The notes beneath the pieces are model-generated. The model searched no databases. It saw nothing but the letters and a program-made list of their open reading frames with translations, and was not told where the DNA came from. A DNA stretch of 64,000 nucleotides, filler included, from Jimgerdemannia flammicorona (taxonomy: Eukaryota): NCBI GenBank assembly GCA_003990765.1. It is 3 parts of 3 records of this genome, joined end to end, with 100 filler letters (N's around TTAATTAATTAA, not from the genome) between each part and the next. Parts side by side here need not be neighbours in the genome. Positions count along the whole stretch, not along the records: positions 43,115 to 64,000 come from RBNJ01001573.1; 2 more parts are not named here. The stretch is one strand, 5' to 3'. Of the stretch, positions 8,861 to 64,000 are shown one piece after another (within the stretch, counting starts at the first letter, position 1; every line of letters begins with the position of its first letter). The position numbers and the translations under genes were made by a program.

Positions 8861-8864
8861 AGTG

Positions 8865-12921: not shown

Positions 12922-14418
12922 TGTAATGGTGACCCCAGAATGATGACATCAGTACCGGAGACAGCCTTTCCTTACAAGCTACCAGATCAGAGCACAAGAA
13001 GATCCTACAGCATACGAGATGAACAATGATGACCAACTATGAGTCATTGTGACCACAGCACAAGCATCCTGAAGAATATAAAAGAAGGATCAAGGAACCA
13101 CAGTAGCAGCAACCAATAAGAACCACCAATCCCAAAATAGCTCAAAGACTTACCATAAACAAAATGCCTGCTACACACCAAACCTCAAGGTCAAGGAATC
13201 ACCAAGGTATCTCAGTTGAGGAAAGGATGTTCCAAGACATCAGAAGAGCCATGAGGACCTGCTCAAGAAGGACTCCTAGTGTCAACCTGGGTACTGCAGA
13301 CCCTTATCACTTCATTCTCTACTGCTGTGAAATGGAAACAAGGATCACCATTGCTACCAAATGCCTCCAAATGTGGCAGAAGTATGAAATAGGAAACCTC
13401 CTCTACTGGGAGTTCCCATAGGCCAGTACTCAAGAGCTACAAGATGCCACTCTCATGGATATATGTGAAACAAGGACAGCTAAGAAGATCCATCAGATCT
13501 TCAGACATGCACCATAGTCAATCTCCAACTTGGAGTATGTTAGAGTCTCAGACTTCAGAGATCTATCATCCTGCCATATCAATGCACTAGAAGCCAGGGT
13601 GGCTATAGAAGCCTGGTCCACTATCACCCTCAACAGTGAAGTAGAAGACTTCTGGCACTCTATCCTTCAGGACAACTCAGACCAATTTCTGCAAGGATTG
13701 ATCTCAGTATTCCAAGGCCCAAGCATCTGGGTTAGATCTCCCCAAGACCCCACATTTGTTCCTTATTTTGTGGAAGAGAACCTCATAGACTGGAGAGCTC
13801 CAGACCTTATTCCTGATTTCCCCACCACAGCTGAATGTGATGATGTCATCAGTGATGACATCATCCTATGCAATATACACAAAATGCATGACCTGTATGA
13901 TGAATTCATGGATCTCATCTCCTTCAGTGATGATGATGATGAAGCCCCCATGATTCTGAACTTTCTACTCTAAGTTCTTTATTATACTAGATAATACCAG
14001 TACCAGTATTCTGAGGTGATGCAAAATTGTTCCAGCACTGGCATTTTGATGTAATACTAAATAATGTCAGCATCCTGAACCTGTACAACCATCAGTACCA
14101 ACTCTAGAACTTAGTTGTTTTAGTTATTGGAATTTATATTTAGCTTTATATCTTAGCAACCATTGAATTATATTTTGTATAAATACCCCTCTTATTTCCT
14201 CTGGAATAAAGTCAGTCAATTCAGTACATTTAGTCAAGTGCAATATATACACTTCCTTGCAAGCAATCTAAGAGATAACAAGATAGTTAAAGATAAGAAG
14301 TTTGAGGACTATAAGACCTTGGGAAGGCACTCCAATAAGAACTTGCTTATAACAACTTGAGTTAGTCTAAGAGATACACCTTGGCATATTTGAAGGACTC
14401 AGTGACTACTATATGACA
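12922..14418 (+). repeat. Family B 3' LTR (~1.5 kb)
   Basis: TGTAA...TGACA ends, follows the PPT, three copies in the window. Confidence 0.93.
13164..13973 (+). pseudogene. LTR-encoded accessory ORF of family B (~269 codons)
   Basis: ORFs 13164-13421 and 13530-13973 share a frame. The internal stops are sense codons (Q, W) in the other LTR copies. Acidic C-terminus. Confidence 0.8.
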
Positions 14419-14649
14419 ATATATATTCAGATACAATATATACATTTTTGATAAAAACAATGCCAATCAGTATAAATTTGAGTCAAAAGCTAGCAAGAAT
14501 ATATTTTTTGGATATTCTGGCATCAGTAAGATATATAAACTCTGGAATCTATATAACTGATATATCATCATTTTATATAACATATAATTCAGAGAAAAAG
14601 AAAATAAAGAATCTCATGTAGATATATCTATCAATATATCTATATCTAT

Positions 14650-16159
14650 TGTCACATAGTAGTCACTGAGTCCTTCAAATATGCCAGATTCTCTTCAAGG
14701 TATATCTCTTAGACTAACTCAAGTTTGTTATAAGTAAGTTCTTATTGGAGTGCCTTCCCAAGGTCTTATAGTCCTCAAACTTCTTATCTTTAACTGTCTT
14801 GTTATCTCTTAGATTGTTTGCAAGGAAGTGTGTATAAGTGAAACTGGAACTGACTTTATTTCAGAGGAAATAAGAGAGGTATTTATACAAAATATAATTC
14901 AATGATTGCTAAGATATAAAGCTAAATATAAATTCCAATAACTAAAACTACTAAGTTCCAGGGTCAGCACTGATGGTTGTATAGGTTCAGGATGCTGGTA
15001 TAATTCAGTGTCACATCAGAATACTGGTGCTGGAATAATTTTGCATCACCTCAGAATGCCAGTACTGGCATTATCTGATGTTACTCAAAATACTAGTGCT
15101 GGCATTATTCAGTGTAACAAAGAACTTAGAGCAGAAAGTTTAGGATCATGGGGGCTTCATCATTATCATCATCACTGAAGGAGATGAGATCTGCGAATTC
15201 ATCATTTTCACATGCCTCAATATCATATGGGATGACATCATTACTGATGATGCCATCACATTTAGTGGGGAAATTGAGAGCTCTCCAATCTATGAGGTTC
15301 TCTTCCACAAAATAAGAGACAAATGTGGGGTCTTGGGGAGATCTAATCTGGATGCTTGGGCCTTGGAATACTGAGATCAACCTTTGTAGGAATTGGTCTG
15401 GGTTGTCCTGGAGAATGGGATATCAGAAGTCTTCTACTTCATCACTATTGAGGGTGATAGTGGACTGGGCTTCTGTAGCCACCCTGGCTTCTAGTGTATT
15501 AATACAGCAGGATGACAGATCTCTGAAATCTGAGACTCTAACATACTCTAAGTTGGGGATCAACCATGGTGCATGCCTGAAGATCTGATGGATCTTCTTA
15601 GCTATTCTTGTCTTGCATATATCCATGGGAGTGGCATCTTGTAGCTCTTGAGGGCTGGCCTGTGGAAACTCCCAGCAGAGGAGGTTTCCTATTTCATACT
15701 TCTGCCACATTTAGAGGCATTCGGTAGCAATGGTGATCCTTATTTCTATTTCACGGTAATAGAGAATAAAGTGATAGGGATCTGTAGTACCCAGGTTGAC
15801 ACTAGGAGTCCTTCTTGAGTAGGTCCTCATGGCTCTTCTGATGTCTTAGAACATCCTTTCCTCAACTGAGATGCCTTGGTGATTCCTTGACCTTGAGATT
15901 TGGCAGGCAGCAGGCATTTCATTTGTAGTAAGTCTTTGAGCTATTTTGGGGTTGGCAGTTCTTGTTAGTTGTTGCTACTGTAGTTCCTTGATCCTTCTTT
16001 TATATTCCTCAAGATGCTTGTGCTGTGGTCACAATGACTCACAGTTAGTCATCATTGCTCATCTCATATGCCATATGATCTTCTTGTGCTCTGATCTGGT
16101 GGCTTGCAAGGAAAGGCTGTCTTCTGTGCTGATGTCATCATTCTGGAGTCACTGTTACA
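14650..16159 (-). repeat. Family B solo LTR with 4-bp TSD CTAT
   Basis: Reverse complement of the B LTR; CTAT on both flanks; Copia sequence on both sides. Confidence 0.92.
15126..15917 (-). pseudogene. LTR-encoded accessory ORF, solo-LTR copy
   Basis: MWQKYEIGNLL...RIAKKIHQIFRHAPW and ...DDDNDEAPMILNFLL in the ORF track. Confidence 0.8.
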
Positions 16160-17565
16160 CTATATTCAGCTAGTATAAGTACAATAACTATCATCAACCT
16201 CTTCAGTAGTCAATCAAAATTATTTTCAACTGCTATATATATCTGAACTAGAGTTGTCTGAATCAAGAATAATAGATATCAAAGATATAGATGACAGCAG
16301 ATCTAATACTGAGGAATCCTCTACAAAGAATAAGCAAAAGTATTCCAATATTTGCCAAGAAACTTATTCCAAATTAAGAAGTTATTAGGACATACTAGTG
16401 AGCTTTAGACAATAGCAATAAGACTATATGAGCTATACTGAAGCATTCAAATATATATATATATAATATCTAGTAAGCTAAATATATATAATGAAGCAAT
16501 GCAATTCCCAGATAACAAAAAATAGAAACATATAATAGATGAGAAATATGATTCACTTATTGAGAATGACATATGGAATCTTATACCCTTTCTATTAAAT
16601 TGCTAAATAATTGGATCTAAGTAGGTCTATAGAATCAAGCACAAGAGTTATAGAAGTGTAGAGTAATATAAAGCTCATTTTATTGCTAAGAGTTATTTAC
16701 AGAATTATAATATAGATTATGATGAGATATTTTTATAGTATTCAAGCTTACTTCACTTAGAATACTCCTTGCAATTGGTATACTATATGACCTGAAAATC
16801 TATCAAATAGATATTAAGACAGCATTCCTGAATAGTGATGTAGACACTAAACTACATATATATCTATCACTACAAGAATATGAATTATACAACAATAAGT
16901 GAAAGAAGCTCATATGTAAACTATATAAAAGATTATATAGTATCAAACAAGTGATATAACTATGGAATAAAAGAATTGATAAATATCTTTTTAATAATAG
17001 ATTTACCTACTGTAAAGCAGATAATTGTATATATATTCAGTATTATAATAATGGCAGTATAGTCTTCATTGGTATCTGGGTTGATGATATAATTATTATT
17101 ACTAGTAAAAATAGGCTTAACAGAGCTAAAAAAGCCCTATGCTGAGAATTCAGAATGATAGATATGGGTAATGCATTCTTCCTTTTAGAGATATCTATAT
17201 ATCATATATAATAGAAATACATGTGCCATATATCTCTCATAAGTGATATATGCTTAAACAATTCTTAAATAATTCAATATGAATGAATATAAGCCTGTTA
17301 GTACTCTTATGGATACTTTTATAAAGTTAAGAAAGCCAGATACTATTTCTGAGGATGACAACAATATGCTAACCAAAACAGTATCAAAGATATCATATCA
17401 GTAAATAGTTAGTTTTCTTATATATCTTATGCTAGGAACAAGGCCTAACATATTATATACTATGAATAAGATAGCACAGTATTCTTTCTGCTATTATAAT
17501 TTATATTAAAGCACTATTAAGAAAATATTTAGGTATCTTAAGGATATAATATATTATATACTTAT

Positions 17566-18011
17566 TGTGATGGTACAGCCAAATTTGGAAGAAGGAAATA
17601 GGGAATAGACATTTGATCACACCCAGTCCCAAAGTAGTATAGCCTTATAGTTAGCAGTTCTTGATTTCGACATTGTCTAAATTCTTAGACATTATCCAAA
17701 TCAAATGTCCTAATTTAGTATAGTATTTAGACATTGTCCAAATATTTTGACAAAGTCCAAATGACTCATTTATTACTTAGCTACCCTCTCATAGCTAGCA
17801 AACTTATATAAATAACCCAGTATCTTGGAGTGAATAAACCTCAGATTGAAAGTGTTAGAAAAGAACAAATATACCAATAAAAGGACCTTCGGGATTACCT
17901 CTTTAAACACATTTGGCCTCAAGGAACTACTGACTCTGGGAGTCAAGAAGACAAGAATTCAAGATAAAGAAATCTGACATACTTGCCCATCTTAGCATCT
18001 GCTATGTTATA
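17566..18011 (+). repeat. Family E 5' LTR (~446 bp)
   Basis: TGTGA start where Copia homology stops. Ends TGTTATA (decayed TGTTACA) just before the PBS. TATA and AATAAA at ~17807-17837. Confidence 0.75.
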
Positions 18012-18014
18012 ACT

Positions 18015-18032
18015 TGGTGCCCATTGGCTGGT
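18015..18032 (+). other. Primer-binding site, family E (TGGTGCCCATTGGCTGG)
   Basis: TGG 3 nt after the LTR end; near-identical motif at 58931. tRNA identity not determined. Confidence 0.75.
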
Positions 18033-18086
18033 GATTCAAGATGAATCCCTCACTTTCAAGCTGAACAATGAACAACTGTAACCAGA

Positions 18087-20172
18087 ATGCACACAACACA
18101 ATCAGACAGAATGGATATGAGACCCCCCATATTCCATGGATATATGTCAGATGAATCAATCATCACCTTCATTGATGATTTCGAGCAGTATGCTACTGTA
18201 AGGACCTTAAGTGCAGCACAACAAGTAGCCCTACTCCCTGTAAGCCTCCAAGGCCCAGTAAGAACCGCATTTACTGCAGCCAATATACAAGCAGCCAATG
18301 ATCCAGCAAGAATCATAGCTTTCGAGACCTGGCTCCAAGCAACCTACTATACAGATGAAATCAAACAAGCACTCAAAGATCAACTGAATACTATCTGCCA
18401 AGGAATGTCTGAAGACCCAAACACATTCTATACAAGAATCCGACATCAAATAGTCCTTACTGACTACCCCAATGTAGTTCAAGACCAAGTGGCCAAGAAT
18501 ACCTTTATGAAAGACATTCACCAAGAAATCGCTTTAGCCATTCGATCTACCCCAACACCACTGGACCTGGGACAGAAGGTTACCTACACCCAAAGATACT
18601 GGACTGCCAGACACCCTCAAGGCCATACAATGGAAAGAATAACTGGAGTAAAAATCAAACAAGCACCAAGAGTCACCAATACAATCCCAGCTACCATAGT
18701 CAACCGAAATACACAACCACAACCACAAGACCAGAGAAGGGTCGACCCAATGGAGGAACTGGCCAAACAGTTTGCAGAAATGACTGCACACCTCAGCGAT
18801 ATAGTCAAAGAGTTCAAGAAGAAGCCAGTATAGAAGTTTGCTGCTACAAATACAAGACGATCAATAACATGCTATAACTGTAGAGAAGAAGGCCACTATG
18901 CCTCCGAATACATGACAGAAACCAAGCGAAAGGCCAATCCAAGCAATGTAACCAGGAACCGTGAACAAGCAAACACTATCACCTTCGAGGAGATTGGAGA
19001 ATCCAAGGAAGAAAGGGAGGAATGGGAAGCTTACTCTGCTACCTCAAGTAAGAAGGATGTCCGATCCAGTCCCTACAAAAGACCTCCAGGCAGACCTCCT
19101 AAGAAGGCCCAGACACAGACAAAACAACTAGAAACAGTCATCGAAAAAGAAATTCAGCAGAGCGAAGCTGACCAAGATATGAAGCTAGAACAAGATGCTG
19201 AGCTGAAGCAAGCAGTAGAAGATATTATTCGAAATACTACCCCATCAAGTGAAGGGAAGAAGGAGCAGAAACTGCGCAAGAGCAAGACCTACAAGTATGA
19301 TATCTTCAAGGACCTCAAGGACCAAAAGGTCAATGCAACCTTTGGTCAGCTGGCTGAAATCCCAATATTCAGACAACAAATGAGGACAGGAATCTCAGAC
19401 ATCAGCAAAGACTAAGATTACAGAATAATCAAAGCCAACAATGCACAAGAAGATTCAGATAAAGAGAGTGAAGATAACTGGAAAACATCAGCCTATGCTA
19501 CCTGCCAGATTGAGGACCGAGTCTTTGAAGCCATCATTGATACAGGAGCAGAAGGATGTCTCATTACCAAGAAAGCAGTAGACCACCTAGGTTGGGAGAT
19601 AGAAGAAGCTACCAAATTGGTGTTTATCACAGCTGATGGGACACGAGCAACATCCTTGGGAAAAATTTGGGATGTACCAATCAAGTTCGGCAAAGCCACT
19701 ATCCCTGTGGATGTTATTGTCACCAATGTAACCAACTACAATATCCTCATCAGCAACCAGTGGCTTCACAAAGCCAAGGCCATGATCGACCTCAGTATAC
19801 AGAAGATACAGATCATCTACTGGGGAAAGAAGATCAGAATTCCCATCAATGTCCACAAAGGAGTCTGCCCCAAGATGGAGGAAGACCAAAAAGAAGAAGC
19901 CTACATGGTTACTACAAAGAAAGGAAAAGGCAAGCAATTGACAGAGGAAGAATGGTATACAAGAATCGCAGATAGATACACCCCACTAGGAAGGTGCCCA
20001 CATGGTGAAAGAATGTACTGTGCCCAGCACTTGGATCACTGCTACTCTTGTATCATTGAGGTGAAGAAGATCACCAACAAGCCAAAGAAGAACCAGGAGG
20101 AACTAGAAGATGGACCACCAGAGTTATTGGATGACAATGATAATGAGGATAAAGATATCAAAGTCAAGATAC
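18087..20172 (+). pseudogene. gag: Family E gag-protease in one frame
   Basis: ORFs at 18087, 18912 and 19617 share a frame. Zinc knuckle CYNCREEGHYASEY; protease IIDTGA. Confidence 0.9.
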
Positions 20173-21411
20173 TGTGACAAGCCAAGACGTACCACCCGAA
20201 TCATATCTCAACCAGATGACACGAACAAAATGACGTGAACACTCAGCTTAGTAACCAGTAACTCTTGCTGTGGAAAACTGTATAAATAGCCAGACATACC
20301 AGAAAGGGTCTGTTTACCTGTACAGACTCTGTACACCTGCCATAAGTAGCAGATCTATAGTTAGCCACATAGTAACCAGGTAGCAACCAACTTGTATAAA
20401 TTACCCCAGAGGCGAGAGTGAATAAAACCTCAGTCTGAATTGAAGTGCAAACCAAAGAAGCCTCTAAAGATTGAGCAATTGGTCCCCTTATTCCCACTCC
20501 GGTCCACTTTCCGATACAAAGCTGATTTTGCCACCTAAGTTCAAGGAAGAACTTCGCCGCCTTTGGAATTATTGTTATTGGTTCGCTTGCCAGATAAGCA
20601 TGAAGATTTCCGTCACCTTTCTTGCCATAAGCCAGTCTTTCTGATGCAACTTCGCAGTGGAGCCAGTCTATGATGTAACCCCGTGCAAACGAAGCCAGTC
20701 TTTGACGTAACTTGCCAAGAATCTGAGTTATTCACCATTTCTAAGTTATCTGCCGTATTTCCAGTTAAGCCACCATTTTCAAGAAACCCGCCAAATCCAC
20801 ATCGTCCGCCACTTTCGAGTTATCTACATTCCCAGAAAACCCATGCCATCCGAGTAGTATTCCCAGTTGAAGCTGAAACCGTGACATCCAAGTTATTCGT
20901 CATTCCCAGTGAGCCTAGGAAGAATCTGCGCCATACAATTCCCAGTGAGCCAAATCGGGTTATCAGCCAGTTCGCCGCGTTCCCAGTTGACCCGTATAAG
21001 GAACCCGCTGCGCTACACAGAAATCGTCGCACTACACAGAGATCATCACGCAGAAATCGCATAAGGAGAACCGCTAAATTACCAGACCGTCACGCACAGA
21101 GATTGTCGCACTATACAAGACCATCACCCAGAAATCGCATACTTTTGGAGATCACCTTGCTACACAAAATTGTGCCATTCCCAGTTGACCCAAGAAGGAA
21201 AAGACATACAAATCGCCGCTACACCCAGAGAACCGTCCCAATAAGGAAACCGCTCGCAGATATCCAGCTTTGACTATTATACCACTAAACACCAAGGACC
21301 TCAGGAATCTTAGAACATTTTGTTGCTTTTTGACAAAGTAACTGGGGGCTCAAGCCAAACTACATCAACCCCCAACCTTGTAATTTGCCTCCATTGAGCC
21401 GGCACGTTACA
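20173..21411 (+). repeat. Family A 5' LTR (CpG-retaining)
   Basis: TGTGA...TTACA ends, followed by a PBS, homologous to 4933-6635. Confidence 0.92.
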
Positions 21412-26099: not shown

Positions 26100-27300
26100 T
26101 TAGACACTGTCTGGGTAGTCTTCAATAATATCATATCTGATGAAGTAGTCATCTATAGAGAGTGGTTTGCAGATAACTTCTCTCTATTCACTGAGATAAT
26201 AATACATTAGAACTTCATCACCATCCAACAAAATAGCATCATCTGTCTCATATGTTAGATAAGGTATTAGTGAGTGAAAGAGGGGTACATTGTCTTCACT
26301 TTCATTGGATTTGCTATCTGCATACCTTCTATAGATAATGATACTATGAGTTGCAGGGTTGTAGTATGCTGGTGGTTGTGCTTCATATCATCTATACTCA
26401 GGTGGTAGGGTTGTTGGTTTGATCTCAAGGGTCATCTGAAGATACAGGTTGTATTCTCTGGTCTCTTCATTATAGTTGAAGTAATTGGGGATGAATGTGG
26501 GCTAGTATTCATATCAGTGGTCATTATCTCAATAGGTCTTGTAGGTGGTTATGAACTGTTGTAAGTTTATTGACAAGATTGGCAGGATAATCAGAGTTGG
26601 CAGGGATTCTTGGCTTAAGGTCATATTGGTATCAGAGATATCATTATCTTCTGCTTCATCATCATTGAACTGGATTATATCATAGACATCCATTATGGCA
26701 TATTCGACTTGAAGCATTTGTAGAATATGGTCATTAGGATGTGAGAAGGTTCTGTTTGTGGTCTGGATATACTTGATATACTTATGATATAGTTCTTGTA
26801 TCATATCATTGATTTGGCCATAGGACAGAGTGGCAACCATATTGGCAGTAGTAACTCAGAGGTGGGGAATAATAGTGCTATACTTATAAAAGAGTTCTCA
26901 GTGTTTACAGGCAATAAGCTTCTAGTGTTGAGATATCTGAGTAATATCTGTATCATGGTGGTGTTTGACTATATCTTCTAGGAGGTGTCTGATCTGGTAG
27001 TAGCATGAGTTTTGTCTGATTCAGTGGACTTTGCTAAGCATGTCAGGGTATTCCATTGGGCTTTTATAAAGTTGAGGGGTGCTAAGCTATGGATATTCAT
27101 GAGGGGCAGAGGGGGTGTGGCTTGGTTGACAATGGCATTCCAAATGTCAGTATGGATGCAATTGTAGATCTCAGTGGTCATGTTTGTATACATATATGTT
27201 CAGGAGTTGGAGTTGTTTGTTTGATTTGTTATGGTTCTATATTTGAACATATCTTGGTACTCGGTATTAATATATTTCGTCTTAATTGGTAAGATTCCAT
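26100..27300 (-). pseudogene. Family C accessory ORF (~400 codons), upstream of gag and apparently inside the LTR
   Basis: ATG at 27300. Reads YYQIRHLL...KLIACKH*ELFYKYSTIIPHL*VTTANMVATLSYGQIN, then acidic DDEAEDND, with one frameshift near 27010. Second copy at 32411-33620. Confidence 0.7.
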
Positions 27301-32269: not shown

Positions 32270-35200
32270 AAATCTTAAACCATTGAAATAATATATCACT
32301 CTCATAATAAATCCAGAAATCACATATAAGATTACAAAGCTGAGTCAAACCAAAGTCACAGATCATTAAACTGAGTCAACTTGAAGTCATAGAATACAAG
32401 ATATACAAAAATGGAATCTTACTAATCAAGATCAAAACTATATATATCAGATATATAGTATATCAAAATGGAAAACTATAACAAACTAAATAATAACTAT
32501 AACTATAAACATATATCTAGCCATGATCACAGAAGTCTATGACTACATCTATACTAACATTTGGATTACTATTATCAACTGTACCATAGCACTCTTATCT
32601 CTCATAAATATCTATAGTCTAGCATCTCTCTATTTAGTAGAAGTCTAATGAAATATTTTGAACATATTTAGTGAGACCTACGAAACTGAACAAATCTCAA
32701 GCTATTATCAAATTGGTCATCTCCTAGATGATATGATTAACCATTACTATAATATAGATATTATCAAAATATCACAACTCTAGAAGCTTATTATGTGTAT
32801 GTAAATTCTAAGAACTCTTTTATAAGTTTAGTACCCTTATTCTCTCACTATCACTAAAATGGTCACAACTTTGATCTATGGCCTAATCAATGACATAATA
32901 TAAGAACTCAACCAGAAATATATTAAGTATGTCCAAACTACTAATAGACCATTTCTACTCTCAGATAATTACATCCTACAGATACCTCAAGTTAGATATA
33001 TACTGAAGGATATTTATAATATATAATCCTATTTAACAATAATAAATCAGAAGACAATGACTCCTCCGATACTAAGATAACCTTCAGCTAAGTATCTCAG
33101 CTAACCCTGATTACTCTGCCAACCTTATTGATAGACTTAAAATAATTTATAACTATCTATAGAATCTATTGTAATAATGATCACTGGTATAATACTAATC
33201 TGCATTCAGATCTAACTACTTTAACTATAATAAAGAAACAGGAGAATATAACCTATATCTTCAGACAACTCTTGAGATAGAACTATTGATTGTACTCTTC
33301 AAATATGAGTAATATGAAGAATAACTATTAGTATACTATAATTCTATAATATATACTACAACCAACTAAAGATATACTGATAGCAAATTCAATGAAAGCA
33401 AAGATAATATACCCCTTCTCTATTAACCAATATTATATCCAGCATATGAGACCAATGATGTCATCCTGTTGGATGATTACTTTATTCTAATATACTACTA
33501 TTAAATGAATAGAGGGATATAATCCAAGAACCACTCTTTCTAGATAACTATTTTATCAGCATTGATATTATCAATGATGACGTCATTAAATACTGTTTAG
33601 ACATTATCTAAATCTATAAATAGCTTAGCAGTCATTAGTATAGTTAAATTAGCATAATACTATATGACTATATTCTAACTTATCAGTCAATAGATCTATT
33701 GATATATCAGTTCATATCTTATACTATATAACTATATTCTGACTTATTAAGTACTAGGTCCTACTTCTAACTAGTTTCAGAAATTTCCTAATTAGGTATT
33801 GTTTACGGCAATATGCCAATTTAACTTAGCTGGTCTTAGTTTCTTAAACTTTCTGAAATAAGAAAATTCTGAATATCTAGAATATTCAAGGAAAGGACTT
33901 GAGATATTAATCTAATCTTGAAATCAATAAGTATAAAAGATATACTATATATGAAATTGATCTTGACCTTAAGAAAACAGTCTGCCAGAAAATTTAGAAC
34001 TTTTAAAAAACTCTTCCAGAACTATATAATGATACTCTAACAAAGTACTCTCTTATAACTTAGTGGTAGTAGTTTATAATTCTGTTCTGCTTTAAGATAC
34101 TTTCTCATTTAGCTACAACTCTTCTCAGAAATTTTTATAAGTTAGTATAAAGCCCAACTGCTAAACTGGAATTTATCTTAAACAATCTGACAATCTAGAG
34201 TAAATTGAATCTGATGTATAAGAACAATAAGACCTCTACACTTAAAATAAGTAGAATAAGCTTTATATAAATAAAGAATTACTTCAATTAAATCAGCAGA
34301 TAGGTGAAACTCTATTAACTGAACTTCTTGCTCTATACCCTATAAGTTAAGACAAAGAAGGTCTTATAGAAGTCTTCTTTACTCTACTCAATAAGAGTTT
34401 TATAAGCTCTATAAATCTGAGTGATATAGAATAACCAGCAGAGCTATTGTTCTAGTCTTAGTTCCTCATGAAGCCCAAGCCTCTATAGTGAAGTAGTTTA
34501 ATTCTACTGACTATTGCTATATCAGACAAAGATTGCTCTATACTATTATTTTCAGAATTATAAGACCTACTATATTCTTAAAGAAGAAGCTAGAGAAATT
34601 TATTATTAATAATCAGACTCTGAACCAGAAGTTGGCCAAGCTAGAACTCTATTTGAATCTAAAACCAAACTAGAAACAGAACCTAATCTCAAAGAAGCTT
34701 TTGACTTAAGTCTATCTGAACTCTAGTATATAATTATTATCATCTACTTTGATACTGAACAAACTCAGCTATACCAAGATCAAAGTAAAGAAGTAGAGAA
34801 GTATCTCATAAATTTAATCCTAGATATATTACTGAAGGAGATATACTTACCTTAGGACAAAATACACCTATACAAAAATAGACTTTTATCTATCAAGCTC
34901 TTATATTAGACCTATAACAGTTACTTCCATAACTTATACAAACTCAAGAAATATCATCACACTCTACACTAATATCTCAAATTATATCAGTATCCTCACT
35001 ATCAGTAATTCAACTATCTCTAGTAAATAATAAAGTAAACTAATAAATTTTGAACTTCATAGCCTAGATATATATCTATAATAGTAGCAACTATTATGAC
35101 CTTAGCCAAATAGACCAGACCAATAAAATGTCTGAGCCTACTTATCTTTAATAATACTATATAAGAAGTTGAAAGCTTTATTAATATAGTAGATATCAAT

Positions 35201-37899: not shown

Positions 37900-40800
37900 C
37901 TCTCCCCACTCTGCCTACAGATTTGTTCTACCAAATGACGCCTTCAACCCCCCTTCAACCTCCAACCCAGCCACCAGCCCATCAAGGTGTCTTCCATAAG
38001 GCTATGCCACCTCATCAGCCTGACCTTAGAGCCAAGTTTCCTCCTATCCTCAAAAACAAATAGCCAGTGACTGGCCAGCCCCACCCAAATGGCCAAAGTC
38101 CACCCTAACATTAGCCATTCCTTCCCCACCCCCCTATCCAGTCTACCCCTTAAATCCTCCCAATGCCCCTGCACATCAGCTCTCCTGCACACTACTCCCA
38201 GATGATCCCCAATGTTCTGCCAAAAGGTACTAAGTACCTCACACTCTCCTAGTCAATGTTCAGGCATCTGTATATATCCCCCTTCCTGCCCCACATTATA
38301 ACATTCTTCACAGTCAAAGCAGTCTCCCTCGATAAGGTGACCAGAGCGGAAGTTGAGCATGACATTTCACCTCAGCACATGCCACCAGACCACCCAGTAC
38401 TTCGGCAGCAACCACCTCCTCACCTTGGCACTCCAGGCCCATATGCTATGTCAGTCCTACTCCTCACCGATTCCTACACCCTGCCAACTACTAGGCCACA
38501 GATCCTGGCCTGGTCCCCATTGGTATTCGATCCCATCACCAATGTCAAGCTCAAGTAAGGGAATGCCACCTAGTAACACTCAGTCCCATCACCACATCAC
38601 TGGGTCCCAAGCCTCCTCCCCTTCATTTCCTTGCCACCTAATCACAATGCGGTATGCTCCCTCTACCACTCCCCACCAGAAGTCTTTGTACCATAATTGT
38701 CCAGAGTTCTGAAGGCCCACAAGCGCTAGGAGATCACCTGTCGAACCTCTTAGAGAGGACCTCATCTCCCAGACCTTCTGCAGTAGGGGAACCCAACCAT
38801 CCCCTCTCAACTCCACTGCTCTCTTCAGCCACCAAGCTCTTAAGCAGTGCAGCCTCTTAGGAAAGTCGACCAGCCCAAGTCCCCCACTTGCCACTGGTAA
38901 GAACAAGACCTCCTAGTTGATCTGACTCTGTCTTCCAGGCCAGATCCACCCCTTGGCCAGCTTTATCAATCACTTCATCACCCAAGCTGAGAAGTCCAGA
39001 TGATAAGCCAGATGCCACACCTTCAGCAGCCAATAGACATTCAAAATGGAAACATGTCCTGCCAGAGACAATTGACAGCCTCCCCTGCTCCACAGGGCCT
39101 CCTCCCAAATGCCAACCCACTGCTCCCACCAAAGTCTGGGCAGAACCGACCCATATACTGACAGATAGATACCCAAGTACCATACTGCCTCACCAGCAGG
39201 GACAATTGTACCAATAATCTCCCCACCTACTAGACTATTGCCTAACACCATTGTTTCACACTTATGCCAATTAAGCCTAGCCCCAGAGTTTGTCTCATAC
39301 CACTCCACTGTCTCCTTGAGCTCCTCAACATCTGCAACTAATCCCAGACCGACTACCATGTCATCTGCAAATGCCCCTACTTTCCACCTAATGCCAAAGA
39401 TAGAGAGCCCTACTATCTTCCACCTGATTCTGTCCATGAAGGGCTCCAGAGACAAAGTGTACAAAATGGAGGACAGTGGGTCCACTTGGGGCACCCCCCT
39501 ACCCAGGGGAAATGCTACCCCTCTATGTCCATTACACATGAGTGCCACCCTACTCCCTTCCAGTAGGCTGACCATGGCAGTCCTGAACTGTTGCAGGACC
39601 CCAATCCTGTCCAAAACTTTTGCCAACCAGACCCATCACACTCTGTCATAGGCCTTCTCCTGGTCCAAAAAGACCAGATGCCCATCCAGTCCACTGGCTC
39701 ATGCCCCTTCAATAATGCCATGTACCCATGCTGTACCATCTCTGATGAGCCTGCCTCCAACAAAGCCCCACTGCTCCTCACCCAAGACTTACTGGGCCAT
39801 CTTTTGCAACCTTGTGACCACCACTTTAGTAATCAGCTTTCTGTCCATATCCAGTAGCATAATTGGCCTCCAGTTCTTCCAGTCCTCTCAGCTTCCTTTG
39901 TTCTTATAAAGCAATGTCACTAACCCTAGATCCTGTTCTCCCACCCATCTCCCTATCTGTAGAACCCAATTATACAGTACCATCATCTCTCCCACTATCC
40001 TAGGGACTCCCACCATCCTTTTCCAGAAGTCCCAGGGCAGACCATCCTCTCCAGGTGCTGTACCCAAGGTTGTCGCAACAAGAACCTGGTGGATCTCCTC
40101 CTCTAGCACTGGCAGTACTAAGTCATCCAACCCAGCTACTTGAGTAGGGTACCAATCCTCCAAACCTTGATCAATATCCTCAGCACCTGCCCCATCTTCC
40201 TCCTCACTCCACAATTCACTCCAATGCTCCTTTAACAATCCAAGAATATCTTGTACCCTATGTACCAATGAACCATCAGCATTAAGCACCCCCTCCCATC
40301 TTTGCTGTAACCTTCTCACCTGAAGAGCCCTTGTAAGAAACTTCGAGGGCCGCTCTCCTTCCTCCAGCCCCTGCCAATGAAGCCATACTGCCAGACCCTA
40401 GACCCTTGCCTCTTCCTCATTCTACAGCACCTGTTGCAGTTCAGCCACCTCCATTTATAGCCTTATCGATTGCCAGTTCTCCTCTCCCTCCAATGTTGCC
40501 AGTCTTGCCCAGTCCTCCAAGAGTCTAGATAATCTATGTGATGCCCACCACACCCACCACTTTCTCTGTCTCCCTGCCTCCATACCAGCCTCACTCCAGA
40601 AGGCCCTGGTCATCTCCTTCATCCTCATCCACCAAATATCAACTGTTACACCTCCCTGCCTCCAACACTCCACCTGCATTTGAATGACTTCGGCCCATTT
40701 ACCCCACAGGATCTTATCATCTAGAAGGGAGGAATTGAGATGCCAATGTCCAGGCTCATCCCCACTCCCCCCAAAATGTCCCTGCCCCAAAAGCCCCCAA

Positions 40801-41479
40801 TGATCTGACCAAGGACACCATTCCACCTCCAGTGACTTCCAAACATCCAGGCCCCAGCAGCTGGCTGATAGAATCCAATCAATCCTCATCCCCAGGCCCC
40901 TGGCCCAGTGCATATACACTCTCCTATTCCCCCAACATTCCCTACCCACATCCACCAGAGCACTAAGTCTTTTCACTTCCTCCCATACTGCCAGTCCTCC
41001 ACTCCACCCCACAGCACCTCATCCCCTATCAGTTCTATCCTCAATATGTCTCAGACCATATTGAAGTCCCTGCCGAGCACATCTACCCCAACCTCCACAA
41101 GAATCCCACTCTCCTGTAGGCCTGTCACCCAATTCACCTGCTCACCCCATACTGCAGGGCAGTAACAGGAGCCCACCATGACTGGCTCCCAACCTGCACA
41201 TATCCACTCTCCCCAGACCAATCTATCCCCCCAGTTCTGCACATCCTGTATATCCCCTCTGCCCTTCTGTACCAGAATTCCAACCTTGCCCTTCCAAACT
41301 GCCTCACCTCCCCACTCCTTCGTCCATTCTAGTCTATCCAAGTCATCCTCACACCTGACATCCTGCAAGAGGAAGAGATCAGCCTCCAATCCCTTCAGCC
41401 AAGTAAAAATGTTCCTACATCAATAAGAGCCCTGTAACCCATTCATGTTCAAAGAAAAAATATTGGTTGTACTATTCAT
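37900..41479 (-). pseudogene. LINE ORF2 (APE endonuclease and reverse transcriptase)
   Basis: IFSLNMNGL, DLFLLQD, DFNMV, RIDWIL, WSDH, APGEDGL, RGVPQVDPLS, FADD, YLGI, GGLGLVD. Confidence 0.92.
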
Positions 41480-42400
41480 AAGAGAAATTATATAGTTTCA
41501 GATGTGACCCCTGCTGCTCCATATCCACTTCCTCCTGTGCCCTATCCAGGTTGTGCTCAGCAATAGCTTCTGCTTCCTCAGTCCTCTTAGCCTCCAATTC
41601 AGCCAGGATTTCTGCCATCTCCCCATCCTCCTTTTCCTCAAACTCCTTGCAGTACTCCAAACAAGCCTCCTGCCAGAGCTGCAGTCCATGCCTCTTAGTC
41701 CAACAGTGGGCAGCCCACTCACCTGCCACAACTGCCAGAGCAGCTTCCCTCTCCTTATCTATCTCATACCCCTCCTCCTCCAAGTACACCACCAGAATTT
41801 CTGCCATCAATGCTGCCACCATTCCATCTTCTTGCAGGATCCTTGATCAATGCTCATTGCTCATCACTCGGAGGTCGACTTCCCCCAGCTCTTCTGCTGC
41901 CAAGTTGTTCATCATCTGGCATACCCAGAACAAGTTTCCCACCTCCTTCCCTCCTGGGGTCGCTGGCCTCCCTCCATCCACCATTGTAGTATCCACCCCT
42001 ACACTCACTGACTCATTCCATCCCTCCTCTGGGACATCCACCAATTCCTCTTCCCCAGTCGCCTCTACCAATTTCCCCTTCTCTACATTCAGGACTCCAA
42101 AGTGCACCTGCTGAGCACTGTGCATCAGCACATCCTCCATCACTCTACCTTTCACTGCTGGACCCCTTCTGATAAGGGCAGAGGGAGAAGGTGAATCCTC
42201 CCAGGTTTCCTCCCAAACCTCCAGTATGCCATACTCATATAGATTCTTGCTCGGCACCTTCATGGCCTCCACCTGCCCACCCTCCTCATTCCATCCACTA
42301 CCAGCAGCCCAGACACTCACCTCTGCACCTCTAGCAGTTGCACTATTGCTTGCCTTCCTCATCACCTCTGCCCCCATTTTCACCAACAATTTCCTCTACC
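41472..42400 (-). pseudogene. LINE ORF1 C-terminal part
   Basis: ORFs 41847-42389 and 41472-41822 share a frame; acidic and helical; stop overlaps the ORF2 ATG. Confidence 0.7.
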
Positions 42401-43014
42401 CAGGTCAGTTGGGATACTCTTGCGAGGCCGGTGGTCGTGGGAGGTCTTGGTCTGGTGGACTTCCCTAAGAGGCTGCACTGCTTGAGAGCCTGGTGGTTGA
42501 AGAGAGCAGTGGAATTGCGAGGCGGCGGTTGGGTGCCTCTGCTGCAGAAGGTATGGGAGATGTGTACATCCCCTCGAGGGTCCTCCGGGGATCTGCTCTC
42601 TTTGGTGGGGCTGAATGGCGTTCGGAGGCTGCGGTTCAAGGGGTTCTGGTGGGGAGTGGTTGAGGGTGCACACCGTATTGGCCTGCGCTGGCAGGGCAAT
42701 GAGGGGGAGGCGGCGTGGGGGCCTAAAATGTGGCGTTGGGATAGACTGCTCCTGGGGGGTTCTCCCTTGGCTACATTCGATATTGGGGAGGGAGTGGAGT
42801 GTCAGCAGGGGCTCGGCCAGGATCTTTGGCCGGGTGGCTGGCAGGCAGTTGGGATCGGCGAGGAGTGGGACTGGGTGGGCATCTGGTCTTGGAGTGCTGA
42901 GGTACGGCGATGGCTCCCTCCCAAGTACTGGGTGGTATGGTGGAGATTGTTGCGGAGGAATGTTATGCTGAATTTCCGCTCGGGACATTTGGTGGAGGGT
43001 GGACAATTTGACTG
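42401..43014 (+). mobile_element. Young 5'-truncated LINE piece in opposite orientation
   Basis: Open frame VSWDTLARPVVVGGLGLVDFPKRLHCLRAWWL, homologous to ~38330-38930 (minus); CpGs intact. Confidence 0.88.
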
Positions 43015-43114
43015 NNNNNNNNNNNNNNNNNNNNNNNNNNNNNNNNNNNNNNNNNNNNTTAATTAATTAANNNNNNNNNNNNNNNNNNNNNNNNNNNNNN
43101 NNNNNNNNNNNNNN
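43015..43114. other. Artificial contig spacer
   Basis: 44 N + TTAATTAATTAA + 44 N. Confidence 0.97.
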
Positions 43115-57179: not shown

Positions 57180-57415
57180 TCTTATCTAATTACTAATTAT
57201 TGAGTAACCTAAAGGAATCTATATCAGATAGACTATAGAGTTGTAATCCTATAATATAACTATTATGTACTACTCTGGAAGAACTAATATCAATATAGAT
57301 ACTCTCTCTAAAGGACCTCTAACCAGTAAACTGACTATAAATAAAAAGCTTTACTATAGAATTATCACTTACTTAGAACAGTAAAAGATACCCCAATATC
57401 TAATAGAATGAATAT
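57180..57415 (+). mobile_element. Old B/E-like RNase H-integrase junction fragment into which family B copy 2 inserted
   Basis: Resembles 11200-11420. Confidence 0.6.
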
Positions 57416-58927
57416 TGTAATAGTGACTCCAGAATGATGACATCAGTACAGGAGACAGCCTTTTCTTGCAAGCCACCAGATTAGAGTATAAGAAGATCAT
57501 ACAGCATATGAGATGAGCAATAATGACCAACTATAAGTCATTGTGACCACAGTATAAGCATCCTGAAAAATATAAAAGAAGAATCAAGAAACTACAGTAG
57601 TAGCAACCAACAAGAACCACCAATTCCAAAATAGCTCAAAGACTTACCACAAACAAAATGCCTGCTGCCTACCAAACCTTAAGATTAAGGAATTACCAAG
57701 GTATCTTAGTCAAGAAAAGGATGTTCCAAGACATCAGAAGAGCCATGGGGACCTGCTCAAGAAGGACTCCTAGTGTCAACCTGGATACTGCAGACCCTTA
57801 TCACTTTATTCTCTACTACCACAAAATGGAAACAAGGATCACCATTGCTACCGAATATCTCCAAATGTGGCAGGAGTATGAAATAGAAAACCTCCTCTAC
57901 CAGGAGTTCCCACAGGCTAGCACCCAAGAGCTACAAGATACCACTCCCATGGATATATATGAAACAAGAACAGCTAAGAAGATCTATCAGATCTTCAGAC
58001 ATGCACCATGGTCAATCACCAACTTGGAGTATGTTAGAGTCTCAGACTTCAGAGTGTCATCTCACTGTATCAATGCACTAGAAGCCAGGGTGGCTACAGA
58101 AGCCCAGTCCACTATCACTCTCAACAGTGAAGAAGTAGAAGACTTCTGGCACCCTATCCTCCAGGACAACCCAGATCAATTCCTGCAAGGATTGATCTCA
58201 GTATTCCAAGGTCCAAGTATTCAGATTAGACCTCCCTAAGACTCCACATTTATTCCCTATTTTGTGGAAGAGAACCTCATAGACTGGAGAGCTCCAGATC
58301 TCCTTGTTCCTGATTTCCCCACTACAGCTGAATGTGATGACATCATTGGCGATGATGTCATCTCATATGACATCGACATATGCGAGATGTGTGATGAAGT
58401 ATATGAAAATGATGAATTCATGAATCTCATCTCCTTCAGTGATGATGATGATGAGGATGAAGCCCCCATAGTTCTGAACTTTCTGCTCTAAATTCTTTGT
58501 TACACTGGATAATACCAGCACTGGTATTCTGAGGTGATGCGAAATTGTTCCAGCACCAGCATTTTGATGTGATACTAAATAATGCCAGCATTCTAAACCT
58601 GTACAACCATCAGTACCAACCCTGGAACTTAGTAGTTATTGGAATTTATATTTAGCTTTATATCTTAGTAACCATTGAATTATATTTTGTATAAATACTC
58701 CTCTTATTTCCTCTGAAATAAAGTCAGTTCTGGTTTCACTTATATACACTTTCTTGCAAACAATCTAAGAGATAACAAGACAGTTAAAGATAAGAAGTTT
58801 GAGGACTATAAGACCTTAGGAAGGCACTCCAATAAGAACTTGCTTATAATAAACTTGAGTTAGTCTAAGAGATATACCTTGAAGAGGATCTGGCATATTT
58901 GAAGGACTCAGTGACCACTATGTGACA
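57416..58927 (+). repeat. Family B 5' LTR
   Basis: TGTAA...TGACA followed by the PBS. Confidence 0.93.
57658..58491 (+). pseudogene. LTR-encoded accessory ORF, 5' LTR copy (single internal stop)
   Basis: 193-aa and 75-aa ORFs in the same frame, separated by TAA where copy 1 has CAA. Confidence 0.85.
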
Positions 58928-58983
58928 ACTTGGTGCCTATTGGCTGGTGATTCAAGACAAATCCCTCACTTTCAAGCTGAAAA

Positions 58984-61900
58984 ATGAACAACCCCCACAA
59001 TAACTACCCTGACTACAAGAGTCACCCTTACAAGAATTCAAGACAAGATGGAAATGCATCCCCCCACATTCTATGGATATACTACTAAAGAGTCAATCCT
59101 GACCTTTATTGAAAATTTTGAACAATTTACCACCATACGAGCTCTTGGTGTGGATGCTCAATTGGCTCTTCTACCAGTCAGCCTCAGAGGACCTGCCAGA
59201 GATAAGTTCAATACAGCCACCATTGCTGATGCTGGTGCAGCCAAACTTACCAATATGAAGGTCTTCCTCAGGACAACATATTATACCAAAGAGATCAAGC
59301 AAGCTCTTAAGGATCAACTCAATACTATCTGCCAGAGACTTAGTAAAAATCCCAACTCATTCTATATCTGAATTTGCCACCAGATTGTCTTAGCTGGCTA
59401 TGATGACCACCTCAAGGAACAAATAGTGGATTCAACCTTCCTCAAAGAAGTTCACCCTGAAATTGCCCTAGCAATCCAGTCTACCCCAGCTGTACTGACC
59501 CTTGATCAGAAAGTGGTCTTTGTACAGAAATATTGAACTGCCAGACATCCTGCTGAACACTCAATGGAGAAAATAACTAGTATCAAGATGGAGCCATCAA
59601 AGCCAACTAGTATCATATCTGCCACAGTTGTAAACAGACAACCAACCTCACCTACCCCCAAGACAGCCAAAGCTGACCCAGTGGAGGAACTCGCCAAGCA
59701 GTTCACTAAGATGATTGCACACCTTAGTAATGTTGTTAGAGAAGTCTGAAGTGCTAACAAGAGACCAGTGCAGAGATTTGCAGCTGCTACAGAAGAATGC
59801 AATATCACATGCTTCAGATGTGGAGAAGAAGGCCACTATGCAAAGAGTTGCATGACTGAAACAAGATGCAAAGCCCAACCAAGCAATGCTACCAGAACCA
59901 GAGAAAAAACCAATACAGTAGTCATTGAGGAGATCGGTGACACTGATGATGAAGAATACTACAAGAAGCTCAAATTCTACCCTGCTACTAAAGATACCAA
60001 AACTCGGTCCAAGCCCTATAACAAAAAGAGCAACAGTAAGCCAGTTGGAAGACCAAAGAAGACCCCAGCTGTCACTATTCAAAGCAAGACCTAATCTGAG
60101 GAGATTGATCAAGACATGGAGTTAGACAAAGCTGCCTGCCAAATTATAGAAGGCACTACTTCAGTCTCAGGAGAAAGCAAAAGCAAGAAGGAACAGAAGT
60201 TATGCAAGACCAAGATCCACCAATATGACATCTACAAGGACCTCAAGGAATAGCAGGTCAATGCCACTTTTGGACAGCTAGCTGAAGTCCCTGCCTTCAG
60301 ATAGCAGTTGAGAGTAGAACTTGCAACTACTGCTAAGAATCAAGAGTACAAGATTGTAGAAGCTCACAATGTACAGAAAGAATCTAAGAACTCAGGTGAA
60401 GAATCCAAAGACCAGCGCAAGACATCAGCCTATACCCCCTGCCAGATTTAAGACTGTATCTTTGATACCATTATTGATACTGGTGCTGGAGGATGCCTCA
60501 TGAGTAAGAAGGCAATTGATTGCCTAGGTTGGGACATTGAAGAGTCCACCAAGATGGTCTATGTCACAGCAGACAGTACACAAGCTACCCCCCTTGGCAA
60601 AATCCAAGAAGTCCCCATCAAGATAGGAGGAGCTACTATCCCAGTAGACATGATTGTTATAAGTGCCACCAACTATGACATCCTCATTGGCAACCAATGG
60701 CTTCATAAGGCCAAGGCCATCATTGACCTCAATGCCCAGAAGATGCAAATCAACTATAGAGGAAGAAAGGTAAGAGTCTCTATCAATGTCTACAAAGGAG
60801 TCCTACTAGATATGGAGGAAGGAGATGAAGAAGACACAGAGGTCTTCATGCACTCGGTGAATAAGAATAAGAACAAGACACCCAAGCTCACAGATGAGCA
60901 GTGGTACAACAAGATCATTGATGGCTATGCTCCTCAAGGAAGATGCCCCCATGGTACTAGAATATATTGCTCTGAACACCTGAATGACTGCTGGTCCTGT
61001 ATCAGTGAAGTTAGGAAAATCCACTAATAGAAACATGAGCAAAAAGCTGCTGAAGCAAAAAGGAAAGCCGAAGAAGATGACCAGCCCCCAGAGCTTCAAG
61101 CTGACAATAACGATGAGAAGGAACAAGAATCAGACATCACCCTCAAGGTCAAGAAGTTTCACCCTAAAGCCAAGATCCCAGAATATAAGACTGAAGGAGC
61201 CATAGGAATGGACCTTGCCAGCATTCAAGATGCTACCCTTGAACCATAGACTACCACCCTACTTGGCACTGGAATTGGAGTCAAGCTGTCAGAAAACCAT
61301 ACCGGAATTATCAAGACCAGGAGCAGTCTGGCCAAAAGCAAAATCTCAGTTGAAGGAGGAGTAATTGACCCTGATTACACTGGCAAGATCTTCCTTATAG
61401 TCAGAAATCACAACCACACCACCCTCTTCAAAGTCAAGAAGTATGACAGGATTGGCCAGATACTGATCCACAAAATCAAGAAGCCCAAGATCATAGAAGC
61501 CATTGAACTTATCAAGACCAAGAGAGGAGAACAAGGCTTTGGATCTACTGGAAGAGGAGCCTATACCACCATCAAGATTACTGAACTTGAGCACAAGAAA
61601 GACAAGGACCAGAATAAGTACATATATACCATTAGAGAAAACTTTCCCCTGGAGGAACAACTTCTCAAGATCCTGTACCAGAATGAAGAAGTACTTGCTA
61701 CAGACTTTAGGGATATCCACAATCAAGAACTCAAGTATTATTACAAAGTTGACACTGGTGATACCAAGCCTATCTACCAGAAAGTCAGACCCATATCACC
61801 TGTCTACAGAGAGTGGCTGTGAGCAGAACTCAAGGAAATGGAAGAAGCCGGAATCATCAAGCAAGCTATCAGCCCCTGGGCCTCACCCATTATCCTAGCC

Positions 61901-63073
61901 CTAAAGAAAGGAAGTAAGCCTGGAGAGTTTGCACTAAGACTCTGCATTGACTACAGGAAACTCAATGCCATCACTAAGAAGGATAGGCAGCCCTTGCCAA
62001 ATATTCAAGAAATTCTTACCACCCTTGGAAGCAAAGCCAAATACTACACTACCTTGGATCTGTTCTCAGGCTTCCATCAGATCAGTCTCACTCAAGATGC
62101 CAGTGAGAAATCAGCCTTCATCATACCTGATGCCATCTATATCTATCTGCGAATGCCATTTGGAATGTGTAATGCCCCAGCAAGTTTCCAGCAAATGATG
62201 AACAGAGTCTTCAGCAATGAGATTTGAAAATGGCTCTTTGTCTATGTTGATGATGTGATTATCTTCAGCAACACTGCATGGGAATATGTCAATCACATAC
62301 AGCTAGCCCTCAAGAGGCTCAAGGAGCATGGCCTCTACATCAAGCCCAAGAAATACAAGTTTGTAGCTCAAGAAATCACCTACCTAGGACACCTCATCAA
62401 CCAGACTGGAATTCACACAGACCCCATGAAGATCAAGGCTATTGCAGCCTACCCAAGACCCAGAATAACCACAGAAGTCCATGCCTTCCTTGGACTGGCC
62501 AGCTACTACAGAAGATTCATCAAAGGATACTCTAACATTGCAGCACCTATCTATGAGCTACTGAAGAAGGAGACCAAATTCAAATGGACCAAGGAGCACC
62601 AAGAAACCTTTAATGAACTCAAGACTAGGTTGACTCAAGCACCTATCCTCAGAAGACCAGACTGGAACCTAGAATTCATCCTGCAGACAGATGCGAGTGC
62701 TATAGGACTTGGAGCAGTCCTAGCTCAGAAGAAAGATGGACATGAATATGTCATCTCCTATGTAAGCTGAGGTACCCGTAGAGCAGAACAGAACTATGAG
62801 TCATGCAAGCTTGAATGCTTAGCAGTAGTCTGGGTAGTAGACAAGTTTCACTACTACCTAGCTGGGAAACACTTCACTATTCAAACAGACCATTCTGCTC
62901 TTGCCTGGCTATTCCACACTCTGAACCCTAAAGGAATATATACCAGATGGATCTACAGGCTGCAAGAGTATGACTGTACTGTCAAGTACTGCTCAGGAAA
63001 GACCAATACCAATGCTAATGCACTCTCAAGGATACCCCGAAATACCACCATCAAGACTATTCAATATGAATAA
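58984..63073 (+). pseudogene. pol: Family B gag-PR-dUTPase-RT-RNase H polyprotein
   Basis: CFRCGEEGHYAKSC, IIDTGAGG, RGEQGFGSTG, YVDD, FILQTDAS; ends at TAA 63071-63073. Confidence 0.93.
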
Positions 63074-64000
63074 GGAGCTATACTATAGATTAATCAGCTA
63101 CCTCAGGCAGCAGAAGATGCCCAACCATCTCGAACCCTAGACAATCACCATCATCAACTGGACTTGAAAACAATTTGAATTAGACAACACTATACTCAGA
63201 AAAGGAGGAAAACTAGTAATATCTGAACACAAGAAGTATCAAGTAATGAAGGAAGTACATGAGCAAGAATACTTAGGAGGAACCAACACATATAACAAGG
63301 TAAGAAGAACTATATAGTAGCCTAAGATAGAAGAAGACCTGTGCCAATTTGTCAAAGGGTGTGACAAGTGCCAAAAACAGAAACAAGATCAGCAAGACCA
63401 GGTACCTGGGTCATTAAAAATTGAGCCTATCCCCTTCCACCACATCACAATAGATATCATTGGACCACTACCAGTAATACTATCAGGAAACTGCTATATT
63501 ATAGTTATTGTAGACCTCTTCACCAAATAGATAGAGGCAGGAGCATTACAAGAAGCCAACACCCTCTCTATAGCTGACTTCCTGCACTGAGAAATCATCT
63601 GCTGCTACAAGACACCAAAGCAAATCACAACAGACTGCGACATGGAATTTATCAATGGATTCCATAAGATAATGTATCAGAAATACAAGATCCAGCACAT
63701 CAAAACCACTACATACCACCCTCAAGGAAATGGACAGACAGAAAGAACCAACAAGACTCTCAAGAACATCCTAGTGAAAATCTCAGAGACATATGAGAAT
63801 TGGAATAACTATCTCCCAATCACCCTCTCTGTTCTATGAGATATATAGTCACAGAGCACACACTTTACCCCAAGAGAGCTGCTCTTCAGAGAAGAAGATT
63901 CTGATGGAACCTCAGCTACAAATCTAGACCTAACTTAGAGATGGGTTGATGCAGAAATCCAGAGACTACACCAAATCAGGAAGAAGGCTGAAGATTACAT
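63066..64000 (+). pseudogene. Family B separate integrase ORF (truncated by the window edge)
   Basis: MNKELYY start, CDKCQK, YHPQGNGQTERTN. Confidence 0.9.

Follow-up and report, generated by a model that had tools for sequence, protein, structure and literature searches.

Sag of MMTV is a membrane glycoprotein, and Tas/Bel1 of the foamy viruses is a protein of roughly 300 residues. Sag is encoded by the U3 region of MMTV and driven from a second U3 promoter, P2 (PMC9412291, in excerpt), and the gene for Tas, whose C-terminus forms an acidic activation domain, has an internal promoter of its own (PMC517496, in excerpt). The additional ORFs (aORFs) known from LTR retrotransposons sit in the internal region of the element, either upstream of gag or in the stretch from pol to the 3′ LTR, and one of them, Grande gene23, encodes a nuclear protein and is equipped with a separate promoter (PMC7264820). 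An internal position is also described for the additional ORFs ORF0 of Retrosat2 (PMC3485330, in excerpt) and the ORF3 types of rotifers (PMC5408684, in excerpt).

A 64,000-nucleotide stretch of Jimgerdemannia flammicorona DNA (the window) was analysed and found to be a nest of decayed retroelements, with 37% GC and a CpG observed/expected ratio of 0.11. It contains three copies of a 1.5-kb LTR with a frame wholly inside the repeat. This is a retrotransposon accessory gene placed like sag and coding for an undescribed protein, and we regard it as almost certain that it is a real accessory gene inside the LTR. Phrase matching confined to open-access papers, a weak search, returned no report of a protein-coding gene lying entirely within the LTR of a retrotransposon. 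Elsewhere in the window, CA and TG were depleted and TA was raised between 44001 and 56000 (a RIP-like pattern), and a GC-rich, LINE-like non-LTR element with an RT, an endonuclease-like frame and an inverted partial duplication was present at 38300-43070 on the minus strand.

Self-comparison of the window showed 84-87% pairwise identity between the three LTR copies. The copies and the elements that carry them are the following.

57416-58927, plus strand: LTR copy A, 5′ LTR of element 2, 1512 bp, TGTAA...TGACA
12922-14418, plus strand: LTR copy B, 3′ LTR of element 1, 1497 bp, TGTAA...TGACA
14650-16159, minus strand: LTR copy C, a solo LTR, 1510 bp, TGTAA...TGACA, with a 4-bp target duplication
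12912-12921, plus strand: polypurine tract immediately 5′ of LTR B, a flank that recurs at contig ends in three of four runs
58931-58947, plus strand: PBS-like sequence (TGG...), common to a sister element at 18015
58988-64000, plus strand: element 2 gag (zinc knuckle), protease, dUTPase, RT, RNase H and integrase, broken by stops and exiting the window
8864-12608, plus strand: element 1 pol (dUTPase, RT, RNase H, integrase), from Pfam and self-comparison

Downstream of copy A, the PBS-like TGG sequence begins 3 nt past the LTR end and is followed by a single-frame gag-pol; upstream of copy B lie the integrase and then the polypurine tract. Pfam gave the order zf-CCHC, aspartyl protease, dUTPase, RVT_1, RT_RNaseH, Integrase_H2C2 and rve. 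The carrier is a Ty3/gypsy LTR retrotransposon, as its domain order, TG...CA LTRs, polypurine tract and target duplication show. No chromodomain family was found after the integrase (Pfam, 11337-12605, E≤0.1), where decay might mask a weak one. Elements 1 and 2 are separate insertions, with pol regions 91% identical, and copies A and B are not the pair of one element. In both (58988-64000 and 9056-12608), gag and pol occupy one frame with the dUTPase between protease and RT, and a Cys/His-rich stretch lies 5′ of the dUTPase. Copy C is bordered by ATAG on both sides, the target duplication being observed at this solo LTR only, and the insertion flanks read ATAT or ATAG (57412-57415, 14419-14422 and the flanks of 14650-16159), a possible target preference. 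Contigs from four public runs (2099, 433, 232 and 108 contigs) were aligned to 57300-59400. In three of the four runs, among the matches listed, contigs exiting at 57416 run into the purine tract of copy B, which fixes the 5′ boundary of the LTR upstream of the ORF. Among the sequencing runs listed as carrying the sequence, none was an RNA run.

The frame is present in each copy as follows.

57658-58491, plus strand: LTR gene in copy A, 277 codons, one internal stop
13164-13973, plus strand: LTR gene in copy B, 269 codons, two internal stops
15917-15126, minus strand: LTR gene in copy C, 263 codons, three internal stops

A first reading made from the sequence alone (the sequence-only reading) had proposed a ~270-codon ORF at 57658..58491 that lies wholly between the TGTAA start and the TATA box in the 5′, 3′ and solo LTRs. 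The coordinates held, with an ATG at 57658 and a terminal TAA at 58489-58491, but the frame of copy A was not open: an in-frame TAA at codon 194 (58237-58239), which that reading had left unmentioned, interrupts it, and the open stretch ends at 58239. The placement was borne out, as the gene begins at position 243 of each LTR copy and ends ~200 nt upstream of the TATA box at 58690, and the contigs that set the left edge of the LTR at 57416 leave the ORF inside it. The solo LTR was likewise found to hold the gene. That reading also had the stops differing between copies, and the six internal stops were indeed each private to one copy, with none in common. At six stops in 809 codons, the gene has decayed to the same level as the gag-pol of its elements (15 in 1384 and 4 in 760 codons); the remaining five frames had 9-28 stops per copy. 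Its observation that the indels visible near the C-terminus keep the frame agreed with the three-way LTR alignment, in which all 12 in-frame gap runs were multiples of 3, as against distinct gaps outside the gene, where 3 of 6 were not; several of the in-frame gaps sit in GAT-rich stretches of low complexity, and there slippage by triplets is favoured in any case. In the public-run contigs, three of the four in-frame indels among the matches listed preserved the frame, and the fourth was a 1-nt deletion present in a minority of contigs. The three-copy alignment contained 231 single-copy differences, 144 of them C-to-T or G-to-A and 221 transitions: the copies decayed after insertion. A possible short frame with an ATG-ATG start was also seen within 220 nt of the LTR start (57440-57636, plus strand); it is stopped at similar places in all three decayed copies.

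Homologues of the protein were all metagenomic. There were 14 distinct sequences, 27-79% identical to family member P0003 and several of them unbroken, and those with a source given came from JGI or ENA contigs of <5 kb. One homologue search matched 6 of 233 candidates; another, of 1.84 billion representatives of any length, returned five proteins, the longest of 342 residues. With an 11-sequence profile, 12 of 8000 sequences scored at E≤1e-3, seven of the 12 being profile members already. No homologue carried an informative name, and three protein searches returned no named cellular homologue. P0003, P0009, P0010, P0012, P0013 and the metagenomic stretch L001 share a Met-Pro start at the aligned column, and the homologues that reach the N-terminus have Met-Pro at this same column. 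Viral contigs gave no match among 76 candidate stretches and no pattern match, and the four Rfam matches were all far below gathering scores.

L001 was one of two stretches (L001 and L002) that passed a metagenome scan of 184 candidates; L002, a 15-residue match, was dropped as chance. L001 is 1345 bp long, encodes an unbroken 323-codon relative of the LTR gene and includes both of the TATA boxes described below and neither LTR end. An alignment of L001 with LTR A showed 69% nucleotide identity over the gene core; the alignment returned at the two TATA boxes and not between. Over 213 core codons, the window copies differed from L001 at 22-24% of 0-fold sites and 51-64% of 4-fold sites (Fisher p 4e-9 to 8e-6, in three non-independent comparisons). 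The dN/dS against L001 came to 0.16-0.18 without weighting and to 0.54-0.60 once transitions counted 15-fold, and that of the LTR gene climbs to 0.54-0.77 under such weighting. Among A, B and C alone, the 0-fold/4-fold contrast was not significant (p 0.05-0.52); this and the higher weighted dN/dS fit decay after insertion and are not in themselves support for selection. The gene was under selection between families and is decaying neutrally in the window copies. Purifying selection, which the sequence-only reading had named as the signal to look for, was thus found in the contrast with L001 (p<1e-5) and in the spread of the 14 homologues.

Two TATA boxes flank the gene, and with the motifs around them they give the LTR the order TATA1, leader, ORF, repeats, TATA2 and AATAAA.

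57571-57578, plus strand: TATA1 (TATAAAAG), putative promoter of the LTR gene, at LTR position 156 in A, B and C
13077, plus strand: TATA1 in copy B
16004, minus strand: TATA1 in copy C
57579-57657, plus strand: leader, A-rich and G-poor, without an ATG and with an A-rich start context at its end
58498-58590 (limits approximate), plus strand: degenerate 33-35 bp tandem repeats, variable in number, between the stop and TATA2
58690-58697, plus strand: TATA2 (TATAAATA), putative promoter of the genomic RNA, in a module also present in L001 and the sister LTR
58717-58722, plus strand: AATAAA poly(A)-signal-like motif, 27 nt past the start of TATA2
14178, plus strand: TATA2 in copy B, with AATAAA at 14205
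14887, minus strand: TATA2 in copy C
17566-18011, plus strand: sister gypsy LTR without the gene, taken as a control, 446 bp, TATA2-AATAAA module only

TATA1 is 87 nt 5′ of the ATG in A, B and C. L001 has TATAAAAG at its position 4, 65 nt 5′ of its ATG, and TATAAATA plus AATAAA downstream of the gene; these two boxes are the only TATAWAWR matches in L001 and, outside the gene, its main stretches still alignable to LTR A. In Markov resampling, TATAWAWR fell within the first 68 nt of L001 in 1.2% of cases and, for LTR A alone, within the first 241 nt in 10%. The 57 nt before the ATG are ~51% A and 7% G, and between TATA1 and the gene start there is no ATG in A, B or L001 and a single, out-of-frame one in C. 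The tandem repeats have a period of 35 and 3.7 copies in copy C (TRF), and their number varies, as seen from a 34-bp gap in A and B and from 33/35-nt joints in the public-run contigs.

The sister element has the same PBS-like site and leader as element 2, and its gag/protease region is 65-70% identical to that of element 2. As its LTR lacks the gene, the gene is accessory; as that 446-bp LTR has the TATA2-AATAAA module only, this module suffices for an LTR. Two further repeats in the window carry the module, and from these and the sister LTR we infer that TATA2 starts the genomic RNA. On the same grounds, the position of TATA2 and AATAAA and the ORF-less sister LTR, the gene would lie in U3. 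TATA1 and the shared AATAAA point to the gene being a transcription unit of its own, and a promoter of its own at TATA1 is probable. The sequence-only reading had offered two routes of expression: an upstream U3 promoter, which gains from TATA1 and its nearly ATG-free leader, and the 3′ end of the genomic RNA, which is now less favoured. A TATA-20 nt-AATAAA module was observed at 5588, 14178, 14887, 17805, 52102 and 58690, in several LTR families, and in L001. The sister element itself (17566-20200, plus strand) adjoins a copia-like pol remnant (~16300-17560) and ends abruptly near 20200.

This layout is closest to P2/sag/P1 of MMTV, the promoters here being placed by motif position; the shared features are a long U3 that contains the whole ORF, a second promoter 5′ of the main promoter, presence in both LTRs and a dUTPase (PMC9412291, in excerpt). 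The carrier here differs in being an envelope-less gypsy element and not a retrovirus, the second promoter is putative, and there is no sequence match to Sag, no membrane segment and no immune target. With the aORFs (env-like genes, Grande gene23, Retand and Boty), the LTR gene shares being a conserved extra gene of obscure origin in most copies (PMC7264820), and as in aORFs it is retained under selection, in all three window LTRs. It differs from them in starting 242 nt past the polypurine tract, inside the repeat, in sense orientation, so that it is duplicated at each insertion and left behind in solo LTRs. It also lacks the transmembrane segment of an env-like gene, and it is unrelated in sequence to aORFs as far as Pfam shows. 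Tas/Bel1, which serves as the model for the mechanism that we favour, likewise has an acidic C-terminus and a second promoter; this promoter is outside the LTR, no homology was found, and the activation domain here is predicted from composition (PMC517496, in excerpt). BARE1 also has a long LTR with a pair of TATA boxes, but it is a copia element, its TATA1 RNA is uncapped and genomic, and the excerpted text describes no protein gene between the boxes (PMC3735527). CERV of C. elegans Cer1 resembles the present protein in being novel and accessory to an LTR retrotransposon, and its role is regulatory; it comes from a spliced mRNA and, short of a direct comparison, no match to the LTR protein was seen (PMC10309623).

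The encoded proteins form a family without a name, domain or fold match in the databases compared. Pfam returned no family for the LTR-gene protein P0001 at E≤0.1 or for P0002-P0004 at E≤5, and three sub-threshold matches only for six homologues. PHROGs matched 1 of 16 members (E 0.09), and the PDB gave one chance match by sequence (E 0.92) and none by profile. AlphaFold2 models of two family members (mean pLDDT 55.6 and 64.9) had a mostly helical core to ~residue 190, including one 37-residue helix, and a low-confidence tail. With these moderate models, Foldseek found no match at E≤0.001, and the best VIA Z values of 4.4 and 4.1 were within background for helical models. The best Atlas feature scores (0.83 and 0.82, TM <0.5) are leads only. 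No DNA-binding domain was recognised in the protein. Sin3 subunits recurred at Z 3-3.6 and were not taken as a signal. No membrane segment was found in four proteins (maximum 19-residue hydropathy 0.48-1.07). The coordinates of the C-terminal tail are the following.

58297-58488, plus strand: acidic-hydrophobic C-terminal tail, variable in length, predicted disordered

The last 65 residues of the copy A protein contain 22 D/E, no K/R and 12 F/W/Y/L. An acidic tail was present in all six proteins examined, with 12-22 acidic, 0-4 basic and 10-12 bulky hydrophobic residues in the last 65. The first 60 residues are basic in most (13 K/R vs 5 D/E in P0003), the patch being weaker in P0010 (6 K/R vs 5 D/E), and the best-conserved residues fall in the helical core. 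Such a composition is that of a nucleic-acid-binding body with an acidic activation domain attached; acidic tails occur also on chaperones and particle proteins. Our bet on a nuclear trans-regulator follows from this combination of a basic, helical body and an acidic-hydrophobic tail, and an activator or anti-silencing factor is put forward only tentatively.

Our main reading, to which we assign a probability of roughly 0.55, is that U3 would be a self-contained transcription unit, made up of a TATA box, the gene and a poly(A)-like signal, with a soluble nuclear trans-regulator as its product. TATA1 would give a capped mRNA of roughly 1.1 kb ending at the AATAAA of the LTR itself, and the genomic RNA would start from TATA2, its R being very short. 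Copying of U3 to both ends in reverse transcription would leave two genes per insertion and one per solo LTR, and solo LTRs, too, would once have yielded the protein, which probably regulated the element. In the most speculative step, the basic/helical core may bind LTR DNA or chromatin, the 33-35 bp repeats 5′ of TATA2 being its candidate site. The acidic-hydrophobic tail might recruit the transcription machinery and so raise TATA2 output, or silencing might be countered, in a genome nearly stripped of CpG.

The same gene and promoter could instead serve an RNA- or particle-level helper that, like CERV or Rev, acts in genomic-RNA export, packaging or chaperoning with its Arg-rich N-terminus on RNA. 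The basic N-terminus of P0003 suits such a role and the gypsy class offers a precedent in CERV of Cer1, which is needed for genomic-RNA export (PMC10309623, in excerpt). However, the patch is weak in P0010, it is the helical core that holds the best-conserved residues and the sister element manages without the gene, and we consider a helper of this kind unlikely. Another rival concerns the promoter. Sag is also produced from the main promoter (PMC9412291, in excerpt) and CERV arises from a spliced mRNA (PMC10309623, in excerpt), so the gene might be expressed from the 3′ LTR only, by way of an RNA from the element body that is spliced or starts internally, with TATA1 incidental. In element 1 the gene does share the frame of pol, but ten stops lie in that frame between the integrase and the ATG, one of them in the conserved LTR terminus, and they rule out read-through from pol. 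The retention of TATA1 in L001 while adjacent non-coding DNA diverged, and the Met-Pro start common to the homologues, also argue against this route, which we judge highly improbable.

The main rival to placement in U3 comes from barley BARE1, in which the upstream TATA makes the sole R-bearing, packaged RNA (PMC3735527, in excerpt). By this analogy, TATA1 would start the replicating genomic RNA, the gene would be the first cistron in a 1.1-kb R, and the AATAAA of the 5′ LTR would be ignored; it would also avoid an R of only ~15-30 nt, the length expected from TATA2 given the 27-nt TATA-AATAAA spacing. Short R regions nevertheless exist in alpha- and betaretroviruses, and the 446-bp sister LTR and the two other repeats have the TATA2-AATAAA module only, which can therefore serve alone; a long R is accordingly improbable. 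Finally, the gene might be a passenger of no benefit, derived from a captured host gene or a nested element through a single entry into the LTR. Its absence from the sister element would suit this, and gene capture by LTR elements is documented (PMC7264820), but selection across divergence down to 27% identity, the lack of a named cellular homologue in the three protein searches and the lack of internal repeat ends or a duplication around the gene make a passenger very improbable indeed.

The window also holds a second, unrelated gypsy family, designated family D, with a frame upstream of a TATA box.

27433-25425, minus strand, and 32277-34057, plus strand: two copies of the family D gypsy element, in the order gag, dUTPase, protease
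26103-27181, minus strand, and ~32540-33620, plus strand: broken ~360-codon frame of family D, upstream of the TATA

In the minus-strand copy, a TATA lies at 25532 and a PBS-like site at 25423, and the frame is probably inside a ~2-kb LTR. The first 157 residues gave a near-gapless alignment to the LTR-gene family profile (6.7 bits, a score that 3 of 2000 shuffles attained), and the second copy scored 0.6 bits (37 of 2000 shuffles). The profile-profile probability was 3%, above all 200 column shuffles. The region was chosen after inspection, and the similarity is therefore a lead and not a result. From this weakly similar U3 gene beside a different pol order comes a speculative and rather doubtful idea, in which the LTR of the gypsy lineage would be a portable, self-transcribing cassette for a trans-activator or silencing-lifter of new fold, still producing from solo LTRs and exchanged among gypsy lineages that are far apart.

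As LTRs, solo ones in particular, count as non-coding sequence, annotation masks them and overlooks genes inside them. With a conserved U3 gene that has its own promoter, an element lacking an envelope would be laid out like a complex retrovirus, and each solo LTR would be a potential source of a trans-acting protein. The family may also offer a small, naturally intact test object for the persistence of elements in a heavily methylated, C-to-T-eroded genome.
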